From the NCBI GenBank assembly GCA_029238215.1, contig JAQWGN010000002.1, forward strand, positions 235 through 64,234: 64,000 nucleotides of DNA, read 5' to 3'. Positions 7,207 through 58,131 of this stretch are shown here, piece after piece. This stretch comes from Flavobacteriaceae bacterium. Lineage in GTDB: Bacteria > Bacteroidota > Bacteroidia > Flavobacteriales > Flavobacteriaceae. Numbering within the stretch: position 1 is the stretch's first letter; every line of letters starts with the position of its first letter. The notes beneath the pieces are model-generated. The model saw only the letters and a program-made list of their open reading frames with translations. It was not told the DNA's origin and made no database searches. Both the position numbers and the translations under genes were made by a program.

Positions 7207-8100
7207 ACGCCTAAAAAACCACAAAATTTTAAAACAAAACTTACTTTGGGATGAAATATATAATAAGTACTGTTTTAATCTCCGCTTCTTTATTTTACTG
7301 AATGCCAGTGCTCCGTCTTTTGGTCTAAAATGTAGACTTGCATGAATTAGCTTTGTTTGAAAGTAATTTTCTTCAATCTTTTGAACAGCATCATTTCCCA
7401 AGTTGTATTTATTTACAAAAAACATCTTCATGTCAAAAAAGTCATGAAAATTACTCGAGTAAGATGTTTTTCTAACTCTGTAGGTAACAAAGGACTCATA
7501 GATAAAGTCATAGGTGCAATTAGATGTTAAGTCAGCTAATATTGGATAATCTTCAATCTTAAAACCTTTCTTTATATAAAGATCAAAATCTACATATAAA
7601 TCTAGAGCATTTTTCCTAAAACAGCATCCTAACGTTGGTGACCCTGTTGTTAGCATGTGATTCCTATAAGTCACTTTATTTAAAATATTTTTATTGTGAA
7701 AATAAGTTGATTTATTTCTGTGTTCATAAAATACATTGTACCCAGAATCAATGAAACCAAGGTTGGGATTACTCTCAAGCTTTTCAACCATTTTTTGTAA
7801 TCCAATTTCGTTGTGTATCCAATCGTCACCAGCCAAATCAAAAATATATTCTCCAGAGCACTGATCTAATGTGTTCTTGAAGTTTTTTAATATTCCTAAA
7901 TTCTTTTTGTTTTGAAATGGCTTTACATGCTCATATGTTTTTGCATAATCCTGAAGTATTTTAAATGTGTTATCAGTAGAGGCATCATCACCAATTACAA
8001 GTTCAAAAGGGAAGTTGATTTTTTGATTTAGCACAGAATCTATTGCATCTTTAATGTATCTTTCGCTGTTGTAAGTTAATATGTGGACAGATAGCTTCAT
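7195..8100 (-). CDS. Family 2 glycosyltransferase
   Basis: MKLSVHILTYNSERYIKDAIDSVLNQ...LVIGDDASTDNT is a canonical GT2 N-terminus with a DxD-type motif. The ATG at 8100 is preferred over the listed TTG at 8115. Confidence 0.8.
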   Translation of the reverse strand: MKLSVHILTYNSERYIKDAIDSVLNQKINFPFELVIGDDASTDNTFKILQDYAKTYEHVKPFQNKKNLGILKNFKNTLDQCSGEYIFDLAGDDWIHNEIGLQKMVEKLESNPNLGFIDSGYNVFYEHRNKSTYFHNKNILNKVTYRNHMLTTGSPTLGCCFRKNALDLYVDFDLYIKKGFKIEDYPILADLTSNCTYDFIYESFVTYRVRKTSYSSNFHDFFDMKMFFVNKYNLGNDAVQKIEENYFQTKLIHASLHFRPKDGALAFSKIKKRRLKQYLLYISSQSKFCFKILWFFRRLAL

Positions 8101-8131
8101 TGTATTATAAAACAATATTTGAATTAAATTG

Positions 8132-9229
8132 ATGTCAAAAGTAAGGATTGCAATTATAACACCATCTCTTGGAAGTGGTGGGGCTGAAAGAGTCTCATCT
8201 CTTGTGTCTATATTTTTAAGTAATATAGGGTATGATGTAACTGTACTTGCGGCCTATCCAAACCAAGAGTTTAATTATAAAGGTAAATACATTTATTTAG
8301 GTCAGTCCAAAACAAAATCAAAGAGCCTGTTTTCTCTTTTGGTTTCGTTTGGGTTATTATTTAAAGCTATTCGAAATGAAAAATTTGACTTTATCATTGA
8401 TTTTAGATCGAGAAGATTGTTTTGGATTGAAATGCTATTTCATACTTTAATTTATTCAGCTGTTAAAAATGTGATTTTAACCGTTCATCTTCCCCTTATT
8501 GAAAAGTATATACCAAAACCATGGTTTTTTTTTAAATCAATTTATAAGCGCGCTGCGGCACTAGTCGTAGTTTCTGATTCGATATACCATAAATTGACTC
8601 ATTTAGGTTACTCAAACCATCATGTTATCAAAAACCCTATCGATTTTACGCATATTGATAATCAAAAGAATGAGGATTTAGCATATACCAAGCCTTTTAT
8701 TTTGGCTGCAGGAAGAATGGATGATGATATTAAACGCTTTGATCATGTTATTCGGGCTTATGCTAGTAGTGTCCTTCCAAAAGCGGGGGTTGACTTGGTT
8801 ATCATAGGTAAAGGTAAAATAATGCCTTCGTTGATTGCGCTTGCAAAAGAACTTAATTGCGAGCTGTTGATTAAATTTGAAGGTTTTCAGAAAAACCCAT
8901 TCAAATACTTTTCAAAAGCTAAATTTTTTGTCCTTGCCAGTCGTTTTGAGGGTTTCCCCATGGTGTTGATTGAAAGCTTGGCTTGTGGTACGCCTGTTGT
9001 CTCTTACAATTGCCCAACAGGTCCCGATGAAATCATCAATCACGAACAAAATGGATTGCTAGTTGAAAATGGAAATTTGAATTTGCTATCTCAGGCTATA
9101 TCTAGATTGCAGATAGATAAAAACTTACACCATAACTGTAAAGAAAACGCTCGTAATTCAGTTAAGCATCTTTCATTTGATAAAATTCAAAAACAATGGA
9201 AAGATTTAATAGAATCTATTGTTGTTTAA
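8132..9229 (+). CDS. Family 4 (GT-B) glycosyltransferase
   Basis: N-terminus IAIITPSLGSGGAERV. The C-terminal motif SRFEGFPMVLIESLACGTPVVSYNCPTGPDEII is typical of GT4/RfaB-like enzymes. Confidence 0.8.
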   Translation: MSKVRIAIITPSLGSGGAERVSSLVSIFLSNIGYDVTVLAAYPNQEFNYKGKYIYLGQSKTKSKSLFSLLVSFGLLFKAIRNEKFDFIIDFRSRRLFWIEMLFHTLIYSAVKNVILTVHLPLIEKYIPKPWFFFKSIYKRAAALVVVSDSIYHKLTHLGYSNHHVIKNPIDFTHIDNQKNEDLAYTKPFILAAGRMDDDIKRFDHVIRAYASSVLPKAGVDLVIIGKGKIMPSLIALAKELNCELLIKFEGFQKNPFKYFSKAKFFVLASRFEGFPMVLIESLACGTPVVSYNCPTGPDEIINHEQNGLLVENGNLNLLSQAISRLQIDKNLHHNCKENARNSVKHLSFDKIQKQWKDLIESIVV

Positions 9230-9899
9230 CTATAACTTCAGAAACATTTCCATCCTCACACTTGAATGTTTTTCCCGGATATTTTTGAATAATACTAAAA
9301 TCGTGCGTAGCCATTAATACGGTAGTGCCTTGTTTATTGACACTTCGTAATACATCCATGATTTCCCAACGTGTAATGGGATCTAAATTACCCGTAGGCT
9401 CGTCAGCCAACAAAACCTTAGGCTTGTTAAGTAAGGCTCGTGCTATGGAAAGGCGCTGTTGTTCACCACCCGATAGCGTTTGTGGAAACTTCTTTTCTGT
9501 TCCCGTAAGATTCACTAGGGCGAGTACTTCTTCTATTCGTTGCTGACGCTCAATTTTATTTTTCCATCGAGTTGCACGCAAAACAAAGTCTAAGTTTTTG
9601 TATACATTTCTATCGGGTAATAACTTAAAATCTTGAAAGACGATACCCAAAGAGCGCCTAAGCATGTGAGTGTGGCGTTTCTTTAAGGTTGAAAGCTTTG
9701 TGGTATTGATGCTTATCTCACCATCTTGAAGCTGCAATGCGCCATACAACGTCCGAATCAAACTGCTTTTTCCACTGCCTGTACGTCCAATGAAATACAC
9801 AAATGAACCTTGAGTAATATCTAAAGTCACATTTTTTAACACTACGTTCTTATTTTGTTGAATCGCAGCATTTTGAATTGATATAATTGGTGTTTCCAT
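9216..9899 (-). CDS. ftsE: Cell-division ABC ATPase FtsE-like
   Basis: 227 aa with Walker A GRTGSGKSS, signature LSGGEQQR and Walker B LLADEPTGNLD. Size and layout are typical of FtsE. Confidence 0.8.
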   Translation of the reverse strand: METPIISIQNAAIQQNKNVVLKNVTLDITQGSFVYFIGRTGSGKSSLIRTLYGALQLQDGEISINTTKLSTLKKRHTHMLRRSLGIVFQDFKLLPDRNVYKNLDFVLRATRWKNKIERQQRIEEVLALVNLTGTEKKFPQTLSGGEQQRLSIARALLNKPKVLLADEPTGNLDPITRWEIMDVLRSVNKQGTTVLMATHDFSIIQKYPGKTFKCEDGNVSEVIVKQQ

Positions 9900-10078
9900 G
9901 CAGGTATAAAAGTAAGCATGTTTTTTTGAAGATTTTAAACTAGTAAATGATATTTTTCACACAACATGTTTAATTTTACAGTTAATTTGCTATAATTTGA
10001 TTTAATAATTAATCTAATAGTAGTATTTATTACTTAAAATCAAAATAAAAAAAGCAAATTTGCATTAAAATATAAACT

Positions 10079-11820: not shown

Positions 11821-13800
<1,980 letters not shown>

Positions 13801-25749: not shown

Positions 25750-25775
25750 AAAGGCGTCCAATTGGACGCCTTTTT
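25750..25775. repeat. Copy 1 of a 26-bp perfect repeat AAAGGCGTCCAATTGGACGCCTTTTT (the rpsT terminator)
   Basis: An identical 26-mer recurs at 26805-26830. The core GGCGTCCAATTGGACGCC is a perfect palindrome, so direct versus inverted orientation cannot be told apart. Confidence 0.9.
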
Positions 25776-25891: not shown

Positions 25892-26788
25892 TTGTTCACA
25901 ATTAAAAAAATAATCTTCTTTTTTCTAGCCTTAAGTTTTCTTGATTCCTTCTGTCAGTAAAGCATTCATAACAAAAAAAGAAATACTCTTATCGAATTCT
26001 CTGAGATTACAAGCAGTTTCGATAATCTTGAAAAACGAAATGGCGAAAAAGCAGTTATTTATTTTAATGCTTCTACTCCAGGATATTTGCTTTTAATTAA
26101 AAATACGGGAAGATTTCGAAAAATCCCATCTAAGAAATTTATATGGCTTGAAGGTGTATTTAAATCATTTCGTTTCCAACATAAAGTAGAAGACTTATTT
26201 AAAAATGAAGTACTAATAGAAACAGAAAGTGGAAACTATTGGCTCCCTATACAAAATAGCTTAGAGTCCTTTTGGCATGAGGAACTCAAAATTAGTGATT
26301 ATGCGTTAATTTATATTAGAGCCTATGGTTCAACATATGAGAAAACATCTGATAAGTGGTTATTTACGATTAATTCATTCAATTCAAATTATTATGACGG
26401 ACTTTGGGAAGAAGCTTTAAATAGTTTTAATGAAAAAGACTCATTCAACGGATTAAATTGTGTCAATAAGTTAATCGAATTGGATCCAAAAGATGGTCGA
26501 AACTTTTCAATGTTAGGGTTTTATTATTATGATAAAGGGTATCCATCAAATATTGAATTATTAAAAAAAGCAGATTCACTTTACACAAAAGCAATTGAAT
26601 TATCTCCAAATTACAGTTATGTTTATTATCAAAAGGCTCTCGTAAAAATGCAACTAGCTGAATATTCTAAAGCTTGGGATAATATAGAGCTAGCAAGAAA
26701 TTTAGGGGAAGAAAATATTAAAAAAAACAAGTTAGTAGAATTGGAAAATAAACTTCCCTATGAAAAATATCTTATAATTAAAGACTAA
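25892..26788 (+). pseudogene. Signal-peptide + TPR-like protein gene interrupted by an in-frame TAA (25958-25960); alternatively a shorter CDS starting at TTG 26087
   Basis: In a single frame: TTG-FTIKKIIFFFLALSFLDSFCQ-TAA-SIHNKKRNTLIEF...GYLLLIKNTGRF..., continuing into the listed 233-aa ORF. The C-terminal half has TPR-like helices (ELDPKDGRNFSMLGFYYYDKG, AIELSPNYSYVYYQKALVKMQ). The region is visibly AT-rich. Confidence 0.45.
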
Positions 26789-26804: not shown

Positions 26805-26830
26805 AAAGGCGTCCAATTGGACGCCTTTTT
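26805..26830. repeat. Copy 2 of the 26-bp repeat; serves as a bidirectional terminator between the TPR gene and rho
   Basis: Same 26-mer as 25750-25775, flanked by an A-run (26802-26807) and a T-run (26826-26830). Lies 19 nt beyond the rho stop. Confidence 0.85.
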
Positions 26831-37930: not shown

Positions 37931-38005
37931 GGTGGTTGTAGCTCAGTTGGTTAGAGCGCTAGATTGTGGTTCTAGAGGTCGCCGGTTCGAAACCGGTCTT
38001 CCACC
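37931..38005 (+). tRNA. tRNA-His (anticodon GUG) with encoded G-1
   Basis: G-1 + GTGGTTG acceptor, D arm GCTC-AGTTGGTTA-GAGC, anticodon arm CTAGA-TTGTGGT-TCTAG, T arm GCCGG-TTCGAAA-CCGGT, 3' strand CTTCCAC + C73. As folded, positions 5-68 and 6-67 are U-U. Confidence 0.85.
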
Positions 38006-38014
38006 CATCAAAAA

Positions 38015-38039
38015 CCCTCGAGAAATCGAGGGGTTTTTT
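38015..38039 (+). terminator. Rho-independent terminator after tRNA-His
   Basis: CCCTCGA-GAAA-TCGAGGG followed by T6. Confidence 0.75.
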
Positions 38040-38049
38040 GTACAAGTAT

Positions 38050-38087
38050 TTTTATTCTTTTAACCGCAATCGATCTTCGCGGTTGGC
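38050..38087 (-). repeat. Orphan copy of the last 11 codons plus stop of the M28 peptidase gene (38 bp)
   Basis: The reverse complement reads GCC AAC CGC GAA GAT CGA TTG CGG TTA AAA GAA TAA = ANREDRLRLKE*. Matches 38811-38848 at 35 of 38 positions, and all 3 differences are synonymous. Confidence 0.9.
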
Positions 38088-38233
38088 AAAAAATCAACTA
38101 TTTAAGTTTTTTTTATAGTAAATAAATTATCATGTTTTTTTGTCGTAAAACGTGTTTTTAACACTATTTGAGAATGTTTTGTTTCCTATCTAATAAAATT
38201 AGCACTAATCTTGCCGAACTAAATCTTAATAAC

Positions 38234-38743
38234 ATGAATTACAAATTATCAATTTTATTTATTTTAATCACATCTTTAACATATGCTCAATTTGGAGTAG
38301 AAGTCGGTTACTCATTGACTGAAGTTAAAATCACTCCAGGGGATTCAACCTCAGACACCAATGGTTTCACTATAGGTGCTGTACATGACCATGAGTTATC
38401 AGAATCTCTAGACTTACAGAGTGGCTTAGGTCTTCAGTTCTTGGATAAGATCGGAGAGGACTCTAATACACTTTTAGCGTTATCAGCGGAAGTTCAATAT
38501 TATTTAGCAGGTAGAGATAGCGGTTTCTTTGCGCATGCAGGACCTCAATATACCCTAAGATTTAAGGATATAGATGGCTTGAAAAAAGGCGCTGTTAATG
38601 CAGGGTTAGGTTTAGGCTATGATTTTTCAGAGCAGATTTCTTTCAAAGTAACTTATTTAACTCAATTAAGCGATTATTCTGATATTGATGATTTTGAGAT
38701 TAAACGAAGTGGTATAAACTTAGGATTGCAATACTTCTTCTAG
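38234..38743 (+). CDS. Small outer-membrane beta-barrel protein (OmpA-TM/opacity-porin-like)
   Basis: 169 aa from the ATG at 38234. Signal peptide MNYKLSILFILITSLTYAQ, alternating aromatic/hydrophobic beta-strands, C-terminal ...LGLQYFF. Confidence 0.65.
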   Translation: MNYKLSILFILITSLTYAQFGVEVGYSLTEVKITPGDSTSDTNGFTIGAVHDHELSESLDLQSGLGLQFLDKIGEDSNTLLALSAEVQYYLAGRDSGFFAHAGPQYTLRFKDIDGLKKGAVNAGLGLGYDFSEQISFKVTYLTQLSDYSDIDDFEIKRSGINLGLQYFF

Positions 38744-38771
38744 AAAGTATTAGTTTCCAGATATAACAATT

Positions 38772-38800
38772 AAAAAAGCCTCCTTACGGAGGCTTTTTTT
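38772..38800. terminator. Bidirectional hairpin terminator
   Basis: A6-GCCTCC-TTAC-GGAGGC-T7, between the OMP gene and the convergent peptidase gene. Confidence 0.75.
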
Positions 38801-38810
38801 GTCGTTATAG

Positions 38811-38848
38811 TTTTATTCTTTTAGTCTCAATCGATCTTCGCGGTTGGC
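38811..38848 (-). repeat. Resident copy of the 38-bp repeat (the true 3' end of the M28 peptidase gene)
   Basis: Reverse complement GCC AAC CGC GAA GAT CGA TTG AGA CTA AAA GAA TAA. Continuous with the 340-aa ORF. Confidence 0.9.
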
Positions 38849-39835
38849 GATTTCCCAAGCCGTATAAAAGATAAGCCGTGTTCGTTTTTCTAAAAGTTCA
38901 TATTCAATTTTTTCAACGGTATCTGTTGGTGCATGGTAATCGGCATGCGTTCCATTAAAGTAAAAGATAACTGGAATATCACTTTTTGCAAAGTTGTAGT
39001 GATCCGAACGGTAGTAATAACGGTTTTCTATAAAACGTCCACGTTCAAAAACCTTTGTAGTAGGGTCGTTGTAACGGTAATCCAATTCCAAATTGACGTA
39101 TTGCTGGTTCATGGCTTCAGACACATCGTGCAAGTCTTGAGATAAAATATCAGAACCAATCAAATACATATAATTGGCATTGTCTTTATGCAATTCGTCT
39201 ATACGCCCTATCATATCAATATTTAGGTTAGCAACTGTGTTTTCTAGTGGATAAATAGGATTGTCGGTATAATATTTTGATCCAAGAAGCCCTTTTTCTT
39301 CTCCAGTAACATGCAAAAACAGGATAGACCTTTTGGGTTTGTGTCCTTGTTTTGCTGCCAATTGAAAAGCTTCAGCAATTTCTAACATTGCTACTGTTCC
39401 TGACCCATCATCGTCAGCGCCATTGTTTATTTGCCCATCTGCTTCAACGCCAATATGATCTAAATGTGCTGTAATAACTAAAACTTCATTTGATTTTTCA
39501 CTCCCTTCAATAAAAGCGAGTACATTTTTAGCATTGATTGTTTTATTTTCTCGGGGTGCATTTAAGTTCATGGGCATAAAGTATGCGCCATCGGGCATGC
39601 CTCCTTTTATGTCTAAGGCTTTGTATTGGTCTTTAAGGTAATTTATGGCAATGGTTTCACCTTCAGTACCGGCCTCTCTACCCATAAATTCATCTGAGGC
39701 ATAGATGTATAAATGTTCTTTTAGTTCATCGGAAGTAATGGAACTCGCATAGGTGCTTGGGTTGACCTCCATGATTCTTTGACTAGTTGCGCAAGACAAA
39801 AACAATAAGCCACCAAAAAATATGAGCTGTTTCAT
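38813..39835 (-). CDS. M28-family aminopeptidase (lipoprotein)
   Basis: 340 aa with signal LLFLSC, AHLDH, GADDDGSG, TGEEKGLLGS and ADYH metal-ligand motifs. Confidence 0.85.
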   Translation of the reverse strand: MKQLIFFGGLLFLSCATSQRIMEVNPSTYASSITSDELKEHLYIYASDEFMGREAGTEGETIAINYLKDQYKALDIKGGMPDGAYFMPMNLNAPRENKTINAKNVLAFIEGSEKSNEVLVITAHLDHIGVEADGQINNGADDDGSGTVAMLEIAEAFQLAAKQGHKPKRSILFLHVTGEEKGLLGSKYYTDNPIYPLENTVANLNIDMIGRIDELHKDNANYMYLIGSDILSQDLHDVSEAMNQQYVNLELDYRYNDPTTKVFERGRFIENRYYYRSDHYNFAKSDIPVIFYFNGTHADYHAPTDTVEKIEYELLEKRTRLIFYTAWEIANREDRLRLKE

Positions 39836-52746: not shown

Positions 52747-55356
52747 ATGAAAAATATTATTCTTTTGTTCCTTGGAGTACTAGTCGCTCCTTTTGTTATT
52801 CATGTTCAGGCCCAATCTAGCCATTGGGAGAGCGTGGTTCTTCCGGGTGATCAATGGGAGTATACCGTTCCTACGTCGCAATTACCAAACAACTGGTATA
52901 CGATTAGTTACAATGCATCTACTTGGGCAACTGGTCCTTCTGGAATTGGTTACGGCGATGGCGATGATGCTACAGATATCAACCAAGCTACTTCGGTGTA
53001 TATGCGTAAAACGTTTCAGATTAATGACCTTTCCCAGTTCAATAGAGTCGTTTTAGATATCGACTATGATGATGCCTACATTGCTTATGTAAATGGCGTA
53101 GAAGTTGGGCGTAATTTACTATCAGGAGATAATATTCCATACAATAGCCTTGCTGAAGGATATCATGAGGCAATGCTCTTTCAAGGGTATGCTCCAGATC
53201 GTGTTTTTATAGATAAAAACTTACTTGTAAACGGCACAAATATTATTGCGGTCCAAGTTCATAATCATACTGCAGACTCCTCAGACATGTCTGCATTACC
53301 TGTTATTTCTTTAGAAGTTTTTGGTAATACGCTAATTTACAACGGAACGCCAACTTGGTTTCAAGAACCCGACCCTGTCCCATTTCAAACAAACTTCACT
53401 TCTTCTAATTTGCCAATCGTATTGCTAGACACTGATGGAAATCAAGAGATTCCTAACGAGCCAAAAATTGGTGCACAAATGAAAATTATCAAGCGCCCAG
53501 AAAATGCACGGAATTTGGTTGCTGATTCAAACAATCCAGACTATCTAAATTTTGATGGACCAATTCAAATTGAAGTTCGCGGATCAAGTTCATCCTTATT
53601 TTCAAAAAAACAATTTGCACTTACTACTTACGATACCGCTGGGGAAAAAGATAACGTAACCCTTCTTAATTTGCCTAAAGAAAACGATTGGATTTTAAGT
53701 GGTTTGGCTTTTGATACAACATTTGTTCGTGATTATGTGAGTTATAAATTATCGAATATGATTGGTCAATACGCTTCTAGAGGGGAATATTGTGAATTGG
53801 TCTTAAACGGACAATATCAAGGCATTTATATGTTACTCGAAAAAATTAAAGCCGATGATAACCGTATTGATATAAAGAAACTGAAACCAGACGACACGTC
53901 ACTGCCTCAAATTACGGGAGGTTATGTTACCAAAGCTGATAAAATTGAGGGAGAAGAAATATTTGCATGGTCTATGGCTACACCAAATGGTTGGGGTGTT
54001 AATTTCGCTCATGAAAGCCCAAAAGCTGATGATATTACCAGTGAACAATCGAGCTATATACAAAATACTTTTGAAGCCCTAGCGGCTACAGCTTCTGAGT
54101 CAAACACCTCAATTACAAGCGGATATCCATCGGTAATAGATGTTCCGTCTTTTGTAGATTTTATGATACTAAATGAGTTTGCTTCAAACCCTGATGCCTA
54201 CCAGTTTAGCACATATTTCCATAAAGACAGAAGGGGTAAATTACGTGCAGGCCCTGTGTGGGATTTTAACTTGACGTATGGGAACGACTTGTTTTTTATG
54301 GGATTTGATAGAAGTGCATTTGATGTTTGGCAGTTTCAAGTAGGGAATAGGGGTGCAACTTTTTGGACTGACCTTTTTAACGATCCAACATTTAAGTGTT
54401 ATATGTCAAAAAGATGGGTTGCATTAACTGCTGTAAACCAGCCCTTACACCCAGATTCGATTATTGCATTAATCGATGAAACGGTTGCGTACATAGATGA
54501 AGCAGTTGCAAGACAGCAGCAGGTTTGGAATATAAATATTTCACACAACACTCGGATTAATGCGGTAAAGGACTTTGTAATTGACCGGGTTAATTGGATT
54601 TCCAACAGGCTTATTGATACCTCTTTATGTGAATCAGTTACTACGCCGCCACTTGTGATCACTAAAATTAATTATCATCCCCTTGATGAAACTATTGATG
54701 ATTCTGATGAATATGAATTTATTGGGATAACAAATAACAGTGGAGTAGAACAGGACCTTACAGGGGTATATTTTGGAGGTACTGGACTTTCATATCAGTT
54801 TCCTGCAGGATTTAAAATAGAGGCTGGTTCAGAAGTTGTTATTGCAAACAACGCAGTCAAATTTGAGTCTAGATACGGTTTCTCATCCTTTGATGAGTTT
54901 TCAAGAAATTTATCAAATAAAAGCCAAGAAATTAGTTTATTAGATGCTTTTGGAAACCTGATTGACAAGGTTGTATATGAAGATAGTGCTCCCTGGCCCG
55001 ATGCAGATGGAAGTGGTAGTTTTTTGAGACTAGCAAGCATCATGAGCGACAATGCCCTTGCTGAAAGTTGGGTTGCTAGTGTTGATTTTAATCCGTTATC
55101 CAACAAAGAAGTTTTTGAAAAGAACACCTTACTCGTTTATCCAAATCCAGTTAGCACGTATTTAAATGTAAGTATTACCAACAATGAAGTAATCAAATCT
55201 GTTGAAGTCCGAAATTTACTTGGACAAAAGGTAATGCAGCTTGCGCCAAATACCAAAAGAGTGAAAATGGATATGGCACATTTAGATAATGGAATTTACT
55301 TTATCCATATGCAGCTTAACAAGGGTACGGTTACAAAAAAAGTTCTAAAGAAATAG
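52747..55356 (+). CDS. CotH kinase-like protein with a lamin-tail (LTD) domain and a T9SS C-terminal sorting domain
   Basis: Begins at the ATG at 52747 (MKNIILLFLGVLVAPFVIHVQAQ). The CotH region includes FVRDYVSYKLSNMIGQYASRGEYCELVLNGQYQGIYMLLEKI. The LTD-like region includes ITKINYHP...EFIGITNNSG. The C-terminus LLVYPNPVSTYLNV...GIYFIHMQLNKG is T9SS type A. Confidence 0.8.
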   Translation: MKNIILLFLGVLVAPFVIHVQAQSSHWESVVLPGDQWEYTVPTSQLPNNWYTISYNASTWATGPSGIGYGDGDDATDINQATSVYMRKTFQINDLSQFNRVVLDIDYDDAYIAYVNGVEVGRNLLSGDNIPYNSLAEGYHEAMLFQGYAPDRVFIDKNLLVNGTNIIAVQVHNHTADSSDMSALPVISLEVFGNTLIYNGTPTWFQEPDPVPFQTNFTSSNLPIVLLDTDGNQEIPNEPKIGAQMKIIKRPENARNLVADSNNPDYLNFDGPIQIEVRGSSSSLFSKKQFALTTYDTAGEKDNVTLLNLPKENDWILSGLAFDTTFVRDYVSYKLSNMIGQYASRGEYCELVLNGQYQGIYMLLEKIKADDNRIDIKKLKPDDTSLPQITGGYVTKADKIEGEEIFAWSMATPNGWGVNFAHESPKADDITSEQSSYIQNTFEALAATASESNTSITSGYPSVIDVPSFVDFMILNEFASNPDAYQFSTYFHKDRRGKLRAGPVWDFNLTYGNDLFFMGFDRSAFDVWQFQVGNRGATFWTDLFNDPTFKCYMSKRWVALTAVNQPLHPDSIIALIDETVAYIDEAVARQQQVWNINISHNTRINAVKDFVIDRVNWISNRLIDTSLCESVTTPPLVITKINYHPLDETIDDSDEYEFIGITNNSGVEQDLTGVYFGGTGLSYQFPAGFKIEAGSEVVIANNAVKFESRYGFSSFDEFSRNLSNKSQEISLLDAFGNLIDKVVYEDSAPWPDADGSGSFLRLASIMSDNALAESWVASVDFNPLSNKEVFEKNTLLVYPNPVSTYLNVSITNNEVIKSVEVRNLLGQKVMQLAPNTKRVKMDMAHLDNGIYFIHMQLNKGTVTKKVLKK

Positions 55357-55360
55357 GAGA
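55309..55360 (+). repeat. Resident copy of a 52-bp perfect direct repeat (last 15 codons, stop and 4 nt of the CotH gene)
   Basis: ATGCAGCTTAACAAGGGTACGGTTACAAAAAAAGTTCTAAAGAAATAGGAGA is identical to 58080-58131. Confidence 0.95.
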
Positions 55361-55531: not shown

Positions 55532-58000
55532 TTATTGTTTAATTATTTTGGCAACTCCAATTCCAATTCCATTGGCATTTTTCAGCTGTAAAATATAAAC
55601 GTTGTTTGGTAGGCTTGATAAATCAATAACAGAAGCGGTACTGCTAATCATTACTTTTCCTGTAATATCATAAATCAAAGCTTTGGAGAAGTTTGAGTTG
55701 ATTTGGATATGCGATGATGTTGGATTGGGATAAAAATCAACATCAATCTTAAAATCTTCTAAAGAAGCTGTTTGACATACTATATTCACAACTTGAGCCC
55801 TTGATATAGAGTTGTTATTTTCGTCAGTAAACGTCCATATAACTCCAAATGTTTCTACACTTGGATCTATTGGAAAGCACTTGTCGTTTATCGCTGTTAC
55901 AGTTGAATGATAATCTGATATTCCCTCTGTAGGGATAGTAAGGCCATGTAATTGTTGACCTTCACAAATTTCATAGGTTACACTTTCTATAACATCTGGA
56001 ACTAAAGGAGGCTGCGTATCATTAACCCCATCAAATTCATAAGCGCCAATGTCTGCAGTTCCGAATCTGTAATATCCCCTTTGATCTTTATTTAATGCAT
56101 CTGAAGATCCTGCATCAATCAGAAAAGAGTCATTTTCTAATGCAACATACGGAATATTAGTTCCAAATATTTGTAGCGTTTCTTTGAGTCCAGAGTCATC
56201 TCCTGTTAATAATGTTTGTGATGTAATTGAACCACTTATTCCATCAGTATTTGATAAAAAAGAATTGATGATTGTAATATCGTTAGAAGAACCCTTAACT
56301 TCTGTAGGACTATTGTTCTCTAAAACAGAATTTTTAATCACAGCGGTTGTATAGGCAGTAATTACTGCAGGCTGATTGGTATCACTAGCAACGTTGTTTT
56401 TAAATGTTGAGCTTTCGATGTTTAGAGTTCCATCATGGGCAGGAATATAAAAAAGACCACTTTTTGTGCTATTTTCAAAAAATGTACAATTAATAATTTC
56501 TACTTCACCTGTGCCATTAGGGATAAATATTAATTCAGCATTAGTAGCTGTGTTTTGATAAAATGTGCAATTTTTAAGTGAAAATATAATATCAGACTGT
56601 TCTTTACTATTGGGAAAATAAAATAGATTATCAGAATTATTATTATTATGAAAATATGAATTTGTAATTTTCAAAGCCCCTTTACTATTAGGCTTGTAAA
56701 TAATTTCCTTAGAATTAAAATTTGTGAAAGTAAGGCCATCAATTGTTATTGATCCGTCCCTATAGCTATAAATCATTCGGTTTGAGCCAATATTAACTCC
56801 ATCAATTGTTAGCAAATTTGCGCCAGGGCCTAATATGGTGATATTTACATCATTATTATGATTTACCGCTCCGTCAACACTAATTACACCACTTAATTCT
56901 CTTAAATCTATTATTGCATTACTGCAGCCATAGTTGTTTGCTTCTGTTAATGCATTTTTAAATGAACCAGCTCCTGAAGCATTCAAATTTTCAACCAAAA
57001 AATATCCAGACGTGCTAATGCTTTTTTCATCAGTATCGTTCGTTATAGTGCTTATTGTGCTTTCAGAAACAACGATAGAAGCTAGGTCAAAGTCTATAGT
57101 GTTACCTATTGTAGCATTATTTTTTAAATCTATAGTTAGCCAATAAACATTGTCTCCCGAACTAAGCAATTCATTTAATTCAAAAGTTATTTCTGAAGAC
57201 GGATTAATTGATCCTATTAGGTTTTCGTCAATAAAATTGGCACTGCGATACAAATTAATTTTTGAGATTTCTTCACAATAGTTTTGTGAGTTGTTTAAAA
57301 AAACTAATTTTTCTAGTTCTAATGGGGAAAGACTTCCATTTGTTGTGACTGTAGCTTTTAATGCTATTTGATTGTCAAAGCCAGGGTTTAAATTACACGA
57401 TGCAGTTTGAGTTCCTGCAGACAAAAATTCCATGTCTGATTCAGCATATATTCTCAATTCATCAATGCCAATACCCAGATCCCCAGACTCTGGTAAATCA
57501 CAATTTCCAACAAAATCAATCTGAACGTCATTCAAATTAGAAAAATCTGAAAGATCAATTGTATTTTTCTTCCATTCAGATGAGTTTGTAGTTATAGTAT
57601 GCACCAACAAACCATTAACATAAACTGCCAGCGTTTCCAGACCATCTGGATGAATGTTGTAAAAAGACAGGTATGGATCTTGCGTAGAAGAAAGATCAAT
57701 GCCCTTTAAAGTCAATTTTACGTCAATAAAAAAATCATATCCATCCATCCCAGAATTTAAATATGCAAATCCATTTCCATTATATGGGGGAAAGCCATCC
57801 CATTGAAAAGACATATTTTGTCTAATGGTTTCCTCTGAATTGTGGTACCAGCGTAATAAGCCATTACGAGCATTCCCATCTTCAGCTATTGGGGTTTCTA
57901 TTGTAAATGCAATAGATTCAGTTAGAGTGTTTAGTGTATCGAAATTTTCAGTCTGTGCAAATATTACAGTTGAAAATAAAAGGATTATTGATTTTTTCAT
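55532..58000 (-). CDS. T9SS-secreted protein with a right-handed beta-helix / choice-of-anchor-Q-like region
   Basis: 822 aa with signal MKKSIILLFSTVIFAQ. The central part has repeated N.T/F.NN beta-helix turns and DQRGYYRFGTADIGAYEF. The C-terminus DFYPNPTSSHIQIN...NVYILQLKN is a T9SS sorting domain. Confidence 0.7.
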   Translation of the reverse strand: MKKSIILLFSTVIFAQTENFDTLNTLTESIAFTIETPIAEDGNARNGLLRWYHNSEETIRQNMSFQWDGFPPYNGNGFAYLNSGMDGYDFFIDVKLTLKGIDLSSTQDPYLSFYNIHPDGLETLAVYVNGLLVHTITTNSSEWKKNTIDLSDFSNLNDVQIDFVGNCDLPESGDLGIGIDELRIYAESDMEFLSAGTQTASCNLNPGFDNQIALKATVTTNGSLSPLELEKLVFLNNSQNYCEEISKINLYRSANFIDENLIGSINPSSEITFELNELLSSGDNVYWLTIDLKNNATIGNTIDFDLASIVVSESTISTITNDTDEKSISTSGYFLVENLNASGAGSFKNALTEANNYGCSNAIIDLRELSGVISVDGAVNHNNDVNITILGPGANLLTIDGVNIGSNRMIYSYRDGSITIDGLTFTNFNSKEIIYKPNSKGALKITNSYFHNNNNSDNLFYFPNSKEQSDIIFSLKNCTFYQNTATNAELIFIPNGTGEVEIINCTFFENSTKSGLFYIPAHDGTLNIESSTFKNNVASDTNQPAVITAYTTAVIKNSVLENNSPTEVKGSSNDITIINSFLSNTDGISGSITSQTLLTGDDSGLKETLQIFGTNIPYVALENDSFLIDAGSSDALNKDQRGYYRFGTADIGAYEFDGVNDTQPPLVPDVIESVTYEICEGQQLHGLTIPTEGISDYHSTVTAINDKCFPIDPSVETFGVIWTFTDENNNSISRAQVVNIVCQTASLEDFKIDVDFYPNPTSSHIQINSNFSKALIYDITGKVMISSTASVIDLSSLPNNVYILQLKNANGIGIGVAKIIKQ

Positions 58001-58079: not shown

Positions 58080-58131
58080 ATGCAGCTTAACAAGGGTACG
58101 GTTACAAAAAAAGTTCTAAAGAAATAGGAGA
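58080..58131 (+). repeat. Orphan copy of the 52-bp repeat (displaced CotH 3' end), 151 nt upstream of the sulfatase gene
   Basis: Perfect match to 55309-55360. An in-frame TAG at 58074-58076 just upstream shows it is not part of a longer ORF. Confidence 0.95.

Follow-up and report, generated by a model that had tools for sequence, protein, structure and literature searches.

The question raised by this locus is how the end of one gene came to be repeated on the far side of another, with the first gene left whole. In the 64,000 nucleotides (nt) of contig JAQWGN010000002.1 from a Flavobacteriaceae bacterium that were analysed here (hereafter, the window), a gene for a 169-amino-acid (aa) outer-membrane beta-barrel protein (OMP) stands between tRNA-His and an M28 peptidase gene, and the last codons of the peptidase gene occur twice, once in their proper place (the live copy) and once as a non-coding orphan beside the tRNA gene. 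An earlier interpretation, made from the letters of the window alone (the sequence-only reading), took the OMP gene for a mobile unit that had arrived on circular DNA carrying its own, diverged version of the peptidase gene end. We find that a target sequence has been duplicated on either side of a one-gene insert, within an insertion hotspot, and that the locus is an insertion scar with a single gene, no recombinase and a gene end as its anchor, an ordinary fossil and one of several in the group, which we tentatively trace to a single crossover.

Results

The peptidase gene end is repeated on either side of one gene

Read directly, positions 38050-38087 are TTTTATTCTTTTAACCGCAATCGATCTTCGCGGTTGGC and positions 38811-38848 are TTTTATTCTTTTAGTCTCAATCGATCTTCGCGGTTGGC, a direct repeat of 38 nt whose copies mismatch at 3 of 38 positions (14, 15 and 17 of the repeat). 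A degenerate pattern search found these two sites alone in the window and none in 100 shuffles, and a repeat scan recovered the same pair, as 60 nt at 82% identity when the spacer side is counted. The second site, also evident from the list of open reading frames (ORFs), lies on the minus strand and comprises the true 3′ end of the peptidase gene with 2 nt beyond it; the first, on the same strand, consists of the last 11 codons, the stop codon and 2 nt. Either copy translates as ANREDRLRLKE* (asterisk, stop), the orphan using CGG TTA where the gene has AGA CTA, and the chance that three random substitutions would all be silent is 0.011. The peptidase gene itself (38813-39835, minus strand, 340 aa; PF04389 Peptidase_M28, E = 4e-40) is both the anchor and the right flank of the insertion, and is syntenic in about 170 of the loci that we compared with the window, which are contigs from genomes and metagenomes numbered from L001 onward. 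The layout is identical in two independent metagenome contigs that encode an identical peptidase (L001 and L004) and is found in diverged form in three more (L169, L167 and L168); with five independent assemblies sharing it and no matches in the shuffles, chance origin or assembly artefact is ruled out.

The region between the repeats (38088-38810, 723 bp) opens with 146 nt (38088-38233, plus strand) that are unlike the peptidase gene, are conserved in L169 and L167, and presumably contain the promoter of the cargo. The cargo is the OMP gene (38234-38743, plus strand; PF13505 OMP_b-brl, E = 1.9e-8), which encodes a signal peptide and is convergent with the peptidase gene. It is the only ORF in the 723 bp, a call of 191 aa being the same frame read from an upstream TTG start. 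Terminator T2 (38772-38799, hairpin GCCTCCTTACGGAGGC, from a terminator scan) is now common to the OMP and peptidase genes and is separated from the live copy by a spacer at 38800-38810, one T followed by GTCGTTATAG. In these respects the description given by the sequence-only reading was accurate: direct reading and the pattern search bear out a 38-nt direct repeat with three mismatches, translation gives the same peptide from both copies, the 723 bp hold a single 169-aa OMP gene with its own terminator, and, the OMP gene being the sole credible gene there, the unit encodes no recombinase.

On the other side, tRNA-His (GTG; 37932-38006, plus strand; called by ARAGORN, with an Rfam tRNA match of 59.9 bits) forms the conserved left flank of the hotspot. 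Terminator T1 (38010-38039), found in the terminator scan of both strands, comprises an A-tract, the hairpin CCCTCGAGAAATCGAGGG (stem at 38015-38032) and a T-run that stops 10 nt short of the repeat. The intervening spacer, GTACAAGTAT (38040-38049), is homologous by alignment to its counterpart before the live copy, and in L167 and L169 the spacer of both copies is GTAGYTGTAT or GTGGTTGTAT. T2 lies within a longer palindrome (38762-38809, 22-nt arms, 86% complementary) that takes in the spacer, and the divergence of the window's T2-side spacer from its counterpart at 38040-38049 may be due to this.

In an Rfam scan of the region only tRNA-His passed the threshold, with no other structured RNA. 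Positions 38062-38084 of the orphan form a 6-bp inverted repeat (AACCGC-N11-GCGGTT) that is destroyed in the window's live copy. In the L167 orphan, 4 of 6 substitutions fall in the AACCGC stem with pairing kept (one compensatory pair, two wobbles), and the L169 orphan breaks the stem; the sequences are too few to judge its conservation.

The site is empty in relatives and is an insertion hotspot

The window lineage is an uncultured marine member of the Flavobacteriaceae, and even in its closest genome representatives the peptidase is only about 80% identical. In about 49 of 160 Flavobacteriaceae loci, distant genera included, tRNA-His lies no more than about 260 nt downstream of the peptidase stop codon and convergent with it, and the empty arrangement is therefore ancestral. 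The sequence-only reading had proposed a search for relatives in which the two genes adjoin directly, and such relatives were found. In L189, the nearest outgroup obtained (84% aa identity), the stop codon is followed by a spacer of about 28 nt, one terminator and tRNA-His, and L011, L015, L088 and L090 are likewise empty; L189, L011 and L015 share with the window the T1 hairpin, present singly between the peptidase gene and tRNA-His. These empty sites match precise removal of the insert and one repeat copy. No empty site from the same species was present among the peptidase-side and PIG-L-side contigs examined.

Other insertions occupy the same position. Islands with a PF00589 tyrosine integrase beside a partial tRNA-His of 62-70 nt are present in L009, L014, L016, L100 and L184, and the attachment (att) repeat of L184 is 94 nt long and includes the terminator beyond the tRNA. 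In L089 (6020-6900), two genes (114 and 113 aa) lie between the peptidase gene and tRNA-His without an integrase, flanked by the terminator and a decayed 22-nt 3′ end of tRNA-His, and this insert is clearly a cargo-only relic of tRNA-type integration at the same hotspot. Two strains of the window species with an identical PIG-L protein have other DNA after tRNA-His (L182, 1856-1899; L183, 940-1591), in which island-end sequence comes after a variant 3′ half of the tRNA and a hairpin like T1. Of this, 44 nt in L182 match L014 at 100%, although L014 belongs to a clade whose peptidase is only about 70% identical, so these islands move between clades. No match to the islands was found in a phage collection apart from a generic integrase PHROG, and a phage nature is unsupported, the contigs of about 42 kb being chromosomal contigs that end at the island. 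Finally, L179 (6068-6220) matches the window from tRNA-His and the orphan through the leader and 35 nt into the OMP ORF, and departs at window position 38269 into a different ORF (MNYKLSILFILILINVYYLF...), which may be other cargo behind the same leader or a branch in the assembly graph; several further contigs of the window species are broken within the OMP gene.

The OMP insertion is old and shared by three lineages

Close OMP homologues form just two clusters (95% and 86% identity) among the 5.8 billion proteins searched, and these sit in L169 and L167/L168, at this locus and in the same architecture as in the window. Beyond this locus no homologue exceeded 35% identity, the sole relative being a gene of L010, with 34% identity and again in this hotspot; the search for the OMP gene at other loci that the sequence-only reading had proposed thus gave no close match. 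The flanks of the three OMP-bearing lineages are 89-93% identical and mosaic, L169 being window-like in the OMP gene and L167-like in the PIG-L and peptidase genes. Because lineages that have diverged by about 10% share the insertion, it predates that divergence, and in at least three lineages the OMP segment has since passed down vertically, with ordinary homologous recombination shuffling it.

Every contig of the OMP clade that spans the locus has both repeat copies. Nothing suggests that the cassette is currently mobile, contrary to what was first proposed; the structure is a fossil, whose repeats could still mediate precise loss. The sequence-only reading had also reasoned that an arrangement shared by all relatives, without polymorphism, would speak against insertion. 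Within the OMP clade very nearly this is seen, and it is the outgroups that supply the empty sites.

Origin of the silent differences

The sequence-only reading had taken the exclusively silent differences between the two copies as proof that the orphan came from a diverged, functional donor allele. At the variable codons the live copy reads CGG TTA in L169, CGG CTA in L167 and AGA CTA in the window, and CGG TTA is also found in the live genes of L189, L089, L010, L011 and L015. Comparison with L169 and the outgroups thus answers which allele is native: CGG TTA is ancestral. The window orphan agrees with the live copy of L169 at 38 of 38 positions and so preserves the ancestral state; all three differences accordingly arose on the live copy, where purifying selection let only silent changes survive. 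A difference of 3/38 also agrees with the divergence of about 10% among the lineages. These alleles account for the three silent hits without any foreign allele, the figure of 0.011 notwithstanding, and we reject derivation of the window orphan from a foreign diverged allele.

The orphans of the sister lineages have accumulated non-silent changes, one in L169 (ANCEDRLRLKE*) and five in L167 (ATHEERLRVEE*). The orphan evolves as dead DNA, and that of the window simply happens to have stayed unchanged.

Extent of the duplication

A sharply bounded unit of 38 bp, as first described, is only half of what the relatives show. On the side of the peptidase body the boundary is indeed sharp and falls at the same place (38087/38088) in the window, L169 and L167, whereas on the spacer side the 38 bp are the remnant of a duplication of about 55-80 nt. 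There the homology runs on through the 10-nt spacer and the T-run, for 55-59 nt in L167 and L168 and for 68-80 nt in L169, where it includes the terminator hairpin and copies of 78-80 nt are 94-95% identical. The hairpin after the OMP gene in L169 is the tRNA-His terminator (T1-type) sequence itself, and in the window and L167 this second hairpin differs (GCCTCC..GGAGGC). Either the duplicated stretch began at the 3′ end of the tRNA and took in 36 nt of the peptidase gene, with later replacement of T2, or it spanned about 55 nt and the L169 hairpin was later converted. The sharp boundary on the peptidase-body side in all lineages excludes a long decayed paralogue, a possibility that the sequence-only reading had itself raised; none of the five spanning contigs keeps a longer remnant.

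Comparable scars at other gene ends

Scars with a common topology, in which an anchor gene end is followed by convergent cargo and, beyond the cargo, by an orphan of the anchor's 3′ end, occur both at this hotspot and elsewhere in the window. In L010 (6984-9800) two cassettes are stacked at the hotspot between flanks about 93% identical to the empty L011. The first has a 637-aa leucine-rich-repeat (LRR) gene, 76% identical in DNA to one in the L184 integrase island, between the peptidase stop codon and an orphan of 38-41 nt. This orphan starts at the same peptidase codon as that of the window, after EI and at the V or A that precedes NR, and is contiguous with a native-like spacer and terminator. 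The second has the OMP gene that is 34% identical to that of the window, between two copies of the tRNA-His terminator, followed by tRNA-His. The window and L010 orphans mismatch at 11/38 positions and each resembles the allele of its own host. By these alleles, the two peptidase-end scars may be independent events or may have been homogenised.

Elsewhere in the window, positions 55309-55360 and 58080-58131 are an exact 52-nt repeat of the last 15 codons, the stop codon and 4 nt of an 882-aa CotH/type IX secretion system (T9SS) gene, and enclose a convergent gene for an 822-aa protein with a T9SS tail (55532-58000) in the same topology as the OMP cassette. Between rpsT and rho, a 26-nt palindromic terminator, AAAGGCGTCCAATTGGACGCCTTTTT, which is common to both genes, occurs exactly at 25750-25775 and at 26805-26830, around a tetratricopeptide-repeat (TPR) gene (26087-26788). 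Contigs with an identical S20 protein differ at this site: L175 has nothing inserted, L170, L171, L173 and L176 have the TPR gene, L172, L177 and L178 have other cargo, and L174 has two cassettes split by the terminator. Every rpsT-rho cassette opens with a conserved leader of about 75 nt, which was not found elsewhere and is locus-specific. Comparison by eye of the OMP, LRR, TPR and 822-aa segments revealed no common backbone or end motifs.

Orphans of integrase gene ends in tRNA islands

In related tRNA islands the repeated gene end is that of the tyrosine integrase itself, the last 36-78 nt of whose ORF recur between cargo genes. Three such orphans are present in L016 (9582-9642, 11220-11264 and about 12100-12128), two in L184 (11548-11607 and 12660-12737), five in L192, a second island family at another locus (2225-2260, 7924-7967, about 8525-8605, 9186-9261 and about 9880-9964), and one to four each in L190, L193, L194 and L199; L087 has three copies (8079-8115, 8743-8779 and 9094-9115; the same in L008) and no live integrase gene in the locus. 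Next to each, at or close to the orphan's stop codon, comes a convergent cargo gene. Of the changed codons, 4/4 are silent in the first L184 orphan and 7/9 in the second, and the L192 orphan ending at 9261 has eight silent changes. Because the differences are mostly silent, these orphans are pieces of once-functional, diverged alleles, so the signature on which the sequence-only reading relied does hold for integrase ends, although the peptidase orphan does not need it.

The long orphans at 8525-8605 and 9880-9964 of L192 and at about 2843-2923 of L199 start at the same nucleotide (TTAAATGTATCCCTAACC). In three of five integrase orphans an in-frame ATG gives a predicted mini-ORF, such as MQKLNLSLTYLRGLEVAELKEEDMPMV*, that comprises the integrase tail with its catalytic tyrosine motif. 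The protein collection contains more than 3000 homologues of this integrase family. That the integrase 3′ end is conserved as a DNA site across the family is unsupported: L188 differs at silent sites, with the protein tail conserved.

Discussion

We read the OMP locus as the fossil scar of one old recombinational insertion between tRNA-His and the M28 peptidase gene, via a single crossover, and put the probability of this reading at about 0.45. Before the insertion, as the empty sites show, the peptidase gene ended some 30-50 nt from a single bidirectional terminator abutting tRNA-His. The incoming DNA would have brought the OMP gene, its upstream region and its own copy of the local target, that is, the last 36 nt of the peptidase gene, the spacer and T-run and possibly the terminator, and a single crossover within this short homology would have inserted it into the chromosome in the Campbell manner. 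One copy of the target would then complete the peptidase gene and lend the OMP gene its terminator, and the other would become the non-coding orphan beside tRNA-His; the peptidase gene stayed intact because the insertion duplicated its 3′ end. Today the OMP gene would be expressed from its own upstream region and end at the shared terminator. That the incoming DNA had its own version of the target end, a central element of the sequence-only reading, draws support from the L010 cargo at the same codon and from the integrase orphans, and has lost the support of the silent differences in the peptidase copies.

The most likely catalyst would be host homologous recombination on 26-80 nt of homology, and the main alternative would be the tyrosine integrase of the tRNA-His islands, acting in trans at the same site. 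In E. coli the minimal homology for RecA recombination is about 25 nt, and all of the repeats, at 26-80 nt, are at or above it. Homology is favoured over one sequence-specific site because the anchors differ (peptidase, CotH and integrase genes, and terminators), and also because the outer repeat edge falls within 0-4 nt of the anchor's stop codon, where homology between donor and recipient would end. Several observations weigh against the single crossover. The same inner boundary codon occurs in two independent peptidase events, that of the window clade and that of L010, and several long integrase orphans likewise begin at one nucleotide; random fragment ends do not predict recurrent inner boundaries, which therefore point towards site specificity. 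A T1-type hairpin stands in the T2 position in L169 alone, and the original extent may thus have been 55 or 78 nt. No donor context, with the OMP gene beside the peptidase gene and no orphan, is present in 189 loci, and the crossover leaves without explanation how a small non-replicating circle would pass between cells.

A possible but somewhat doubtful explanation is that the locus is the decayed relic of an integrase-driven tRNA-His island, similar to the cis-mobilizable elements and tycheposons described below, or a cargo-only unit mobilised in trans. The att block of such an island would have stretched from the tRNA across terminator and spacer to cover the final 36 nt of the peptidase gene, and the partial tRNA, integrase and other cargo would have been deleted later. 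The hotspot offers much that fits: PF00589-integrase islands at this very tRNA-His in five loci, an island end after tRNA-His in two strains of the window species, an att repeat in L184 that already takes in the terminator beyond the tRNA, the two-gene cargo-only insert of L089 with its decayed 22-nt tRNA end, an OMP gene in L010 flanked by terminator copies only, and a repeat in L169 whose start lies 3-4 nt beyond the tRNA. If an island-borne block had a fixed outer limit, this would moreover account for the boundary codon shared by L010 and the window clade. Degenerate elements and scattered partial tRNAs have been described for tycheposon islands (10.1101/2020.12.28.424599). However, the peptidase-proximal copy at the OMP locus lacks a partial tRNA, about 190 loci yielded no intact island with a peptidase-end block, and the island ends in the window species carry the terminator only. 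We reject a single island-borne peptidase-end block common to the window and L010, since their orphans differ at 11/38 positions and each is like its own host. A decayed island also needs several precisely placed deletions, and leaves unaccounted the CotH and integrase-3′-end orphans, which lie away from tRNA att sites.

The scars taken together could instead be products of an undescribed cassette system of marine Flavobacteriaceae, in which single-gene units bounded by anchor-gene 3′ ends of about 36-80 nt are captured, stacked and exchanged at those ends. As anchor, most units would have the tyrosine integrase gene of the island, and some would have a chromosomal one, for instance that for the peptidase or CotH; the OMP cassette would be a fossil member, and the integrase would possibly act in trans at a site overlapping its own stop-proximal codons. 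Recurrent boundaries, stop-precise outer repeat edges and the near-exclusively silent differences of the orphans fit such a system. We think it rather unlikely, and retain it because the inner boundaries recur.

Two explanations remain. In a true target-site duplication, the host's own sequence would have been filled in on both sides of an OMP segment, either pasted into a staggered break with about 40-80 nt between the nicks or arising from template switching as a break was repaired. In its favour, the 78-80 nt copies of L169 are 94-95% identical, hairpin included; a clade-specific 10-nt spacer, missing from the outgroups, accompanies both copies; L010, set beside the empty L011, looks like two adjacent inserts each with duplicated host flanks; and the rpsT-rho terminator, a perfect palindrome, is duplicated exactly. 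Yet the cargo segments have no terminal inverted repeats, transposase or common end motifs, the repeats range in length from 26 to 80 nt, random staggered cuts would not be expected to place a repeat end within 0-4 nt of a stop codon in at least six cases, and the many silent differences of the integrase orphans indicate other alleles, not in-place copying, so that we regard this explanation as improbable. Very improbable indeed is that the orphan is the last trace of a full second peptidase copy, from tandem duplication or an imported segment, later trimmed by deletion, for although streamlined genomes are quick to delete redundant DNA and related islands contain truncated integrase genes (e.g., a 181-aa piece in L014), the similarity ends abruptly at an Ala codon, beyond which come 146 AT-rich nt with no relation to the peptidase gene, none of the five spanning contigs, from three diverged lineages, keeps a longer remnant, and the same boundary recurs in L010.

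Among the known elements closest to the locus is prophage e14, which leaves in E. coli icd a duplicated gene end, icd′, of 163 bp (PMC6379469). In icd, as in the window, the element (e14, and also phage 21) supplies a replacement 3′ end and the native end is displaced as a pseudo-copy, with the gene intact. However, e14 has its own integrase and spans 15 kb, whereas the window unit is 723 bp with one cargo gene, no recombinase and a repeat of 38-80 nt. Nor, unlike the case of e14, was an integrase ever found beside the peptidase end: a tblastn search over 183 loci (L001-L183) returned integrases only beside partial tRNA-His, and L010, the only other locus with a peptidase-end repeat, is also cargo-only.

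Cis-mobilizable elements (CIMEs) related to the integrative and conjugative elements (ICEs) ICESt1 and ICESt3 sit at the 3′ end of fda in Streptococcus. The CIME concept denotes att-bounded segments without recombination genes (PMC5704250). Like the window unit, CIMEs are cargo-only, lack recombination genes, and have a protein-coding gene's end within their att-type direct repeats; they derive from and are mobilised by a known ICE at the same att site, whereas no such partner was found for the peptidase end. The window locus also has the outward form of a tycheposon site, as a tRNA-adjacent hotspot in a streamlined marine bacterium, with tyrosine-integrase islands, tandem accretion and cargo-only att-flanked remnants (10.1101/2020.12.28.424599). 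This likeness, which L089 and L184 fit, is one of layout. Unlike in tycheposons, the OMP repeat contains no tRNA sequence, no partial tRNA lies near T2, there is no tyrosine recombinase at the window locus, and what recurs between cargo genes of the related islands is the integrase gene's own 3′ end instead of partial tRNAs.

Integron cassettes resemble these units in being small, mostly single-gene and without a recombinase, and the related islands form repeat-bounded arrays next to a tyrosine recombinase gene. However, there is no attC-type imperfect palindrome and no GTTRRRY, the repeat is the coding end of a neighbouring gene, the cargo has its own 146-nt upstream region and is convergent with the integrase gene, and the arrays are at the 3′ and not the 5′ end of that gene. 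No integrase was present among the scanned cassette-flanking genes, and the island integrase had no tblastn relative in the 64-kb window, with no scan by an IntI model made. An inverted-repeat scan returned terminator hairpins and weak AT-rich pairs only, with no terminal inverted repeats, and there was no transposase ORF. Nor is the length of the duplication fixed and short, as in transposition: it is 38 nt in the window, 55-80 nt in its sisters and 26-78 nt in the analogous cases. We thus reject an integron, an insertion sequence or a miniature inverted-repeat transposable element, given no attC, no inverted termini and no transposase.

Homology-facilitated illegitimate recombination and Campbell-type integration are established mechanisms, known from transformation experiments, that like the scars described here involve short one-sided homology, no dedicated recombinase and possible duplication of the anchor. 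They do not predict the recurrent boundaries seen here. To our knowledge, neither mechanism is on record as a natural process that repeatedly gives rise to cassette arrays with gene-end orphans, and general literature searches for a gene-end-orphan architecture returned nothing specific.

The scar shows a streamlined marine bacterium adding one surface-protein gene to its chromosome without damage to the neighbouring gene. It belongs to a wider pattern in which many flexible genes, mostly for surface or secreted proteins, lie convergent to an anchor gene with an orphan of the anchor's end on their far side, a family-wide pattern that merits a systematic survey. If a dedicated or semi-dedicated capture mechanism were responsible, it would provide a simple sequence signature by which such insertions could be recognised in metagenomes, and would help to explain the flexible gene pool of abundant ocean Flavobacteriaceae, which are poor in classical mobile elements.

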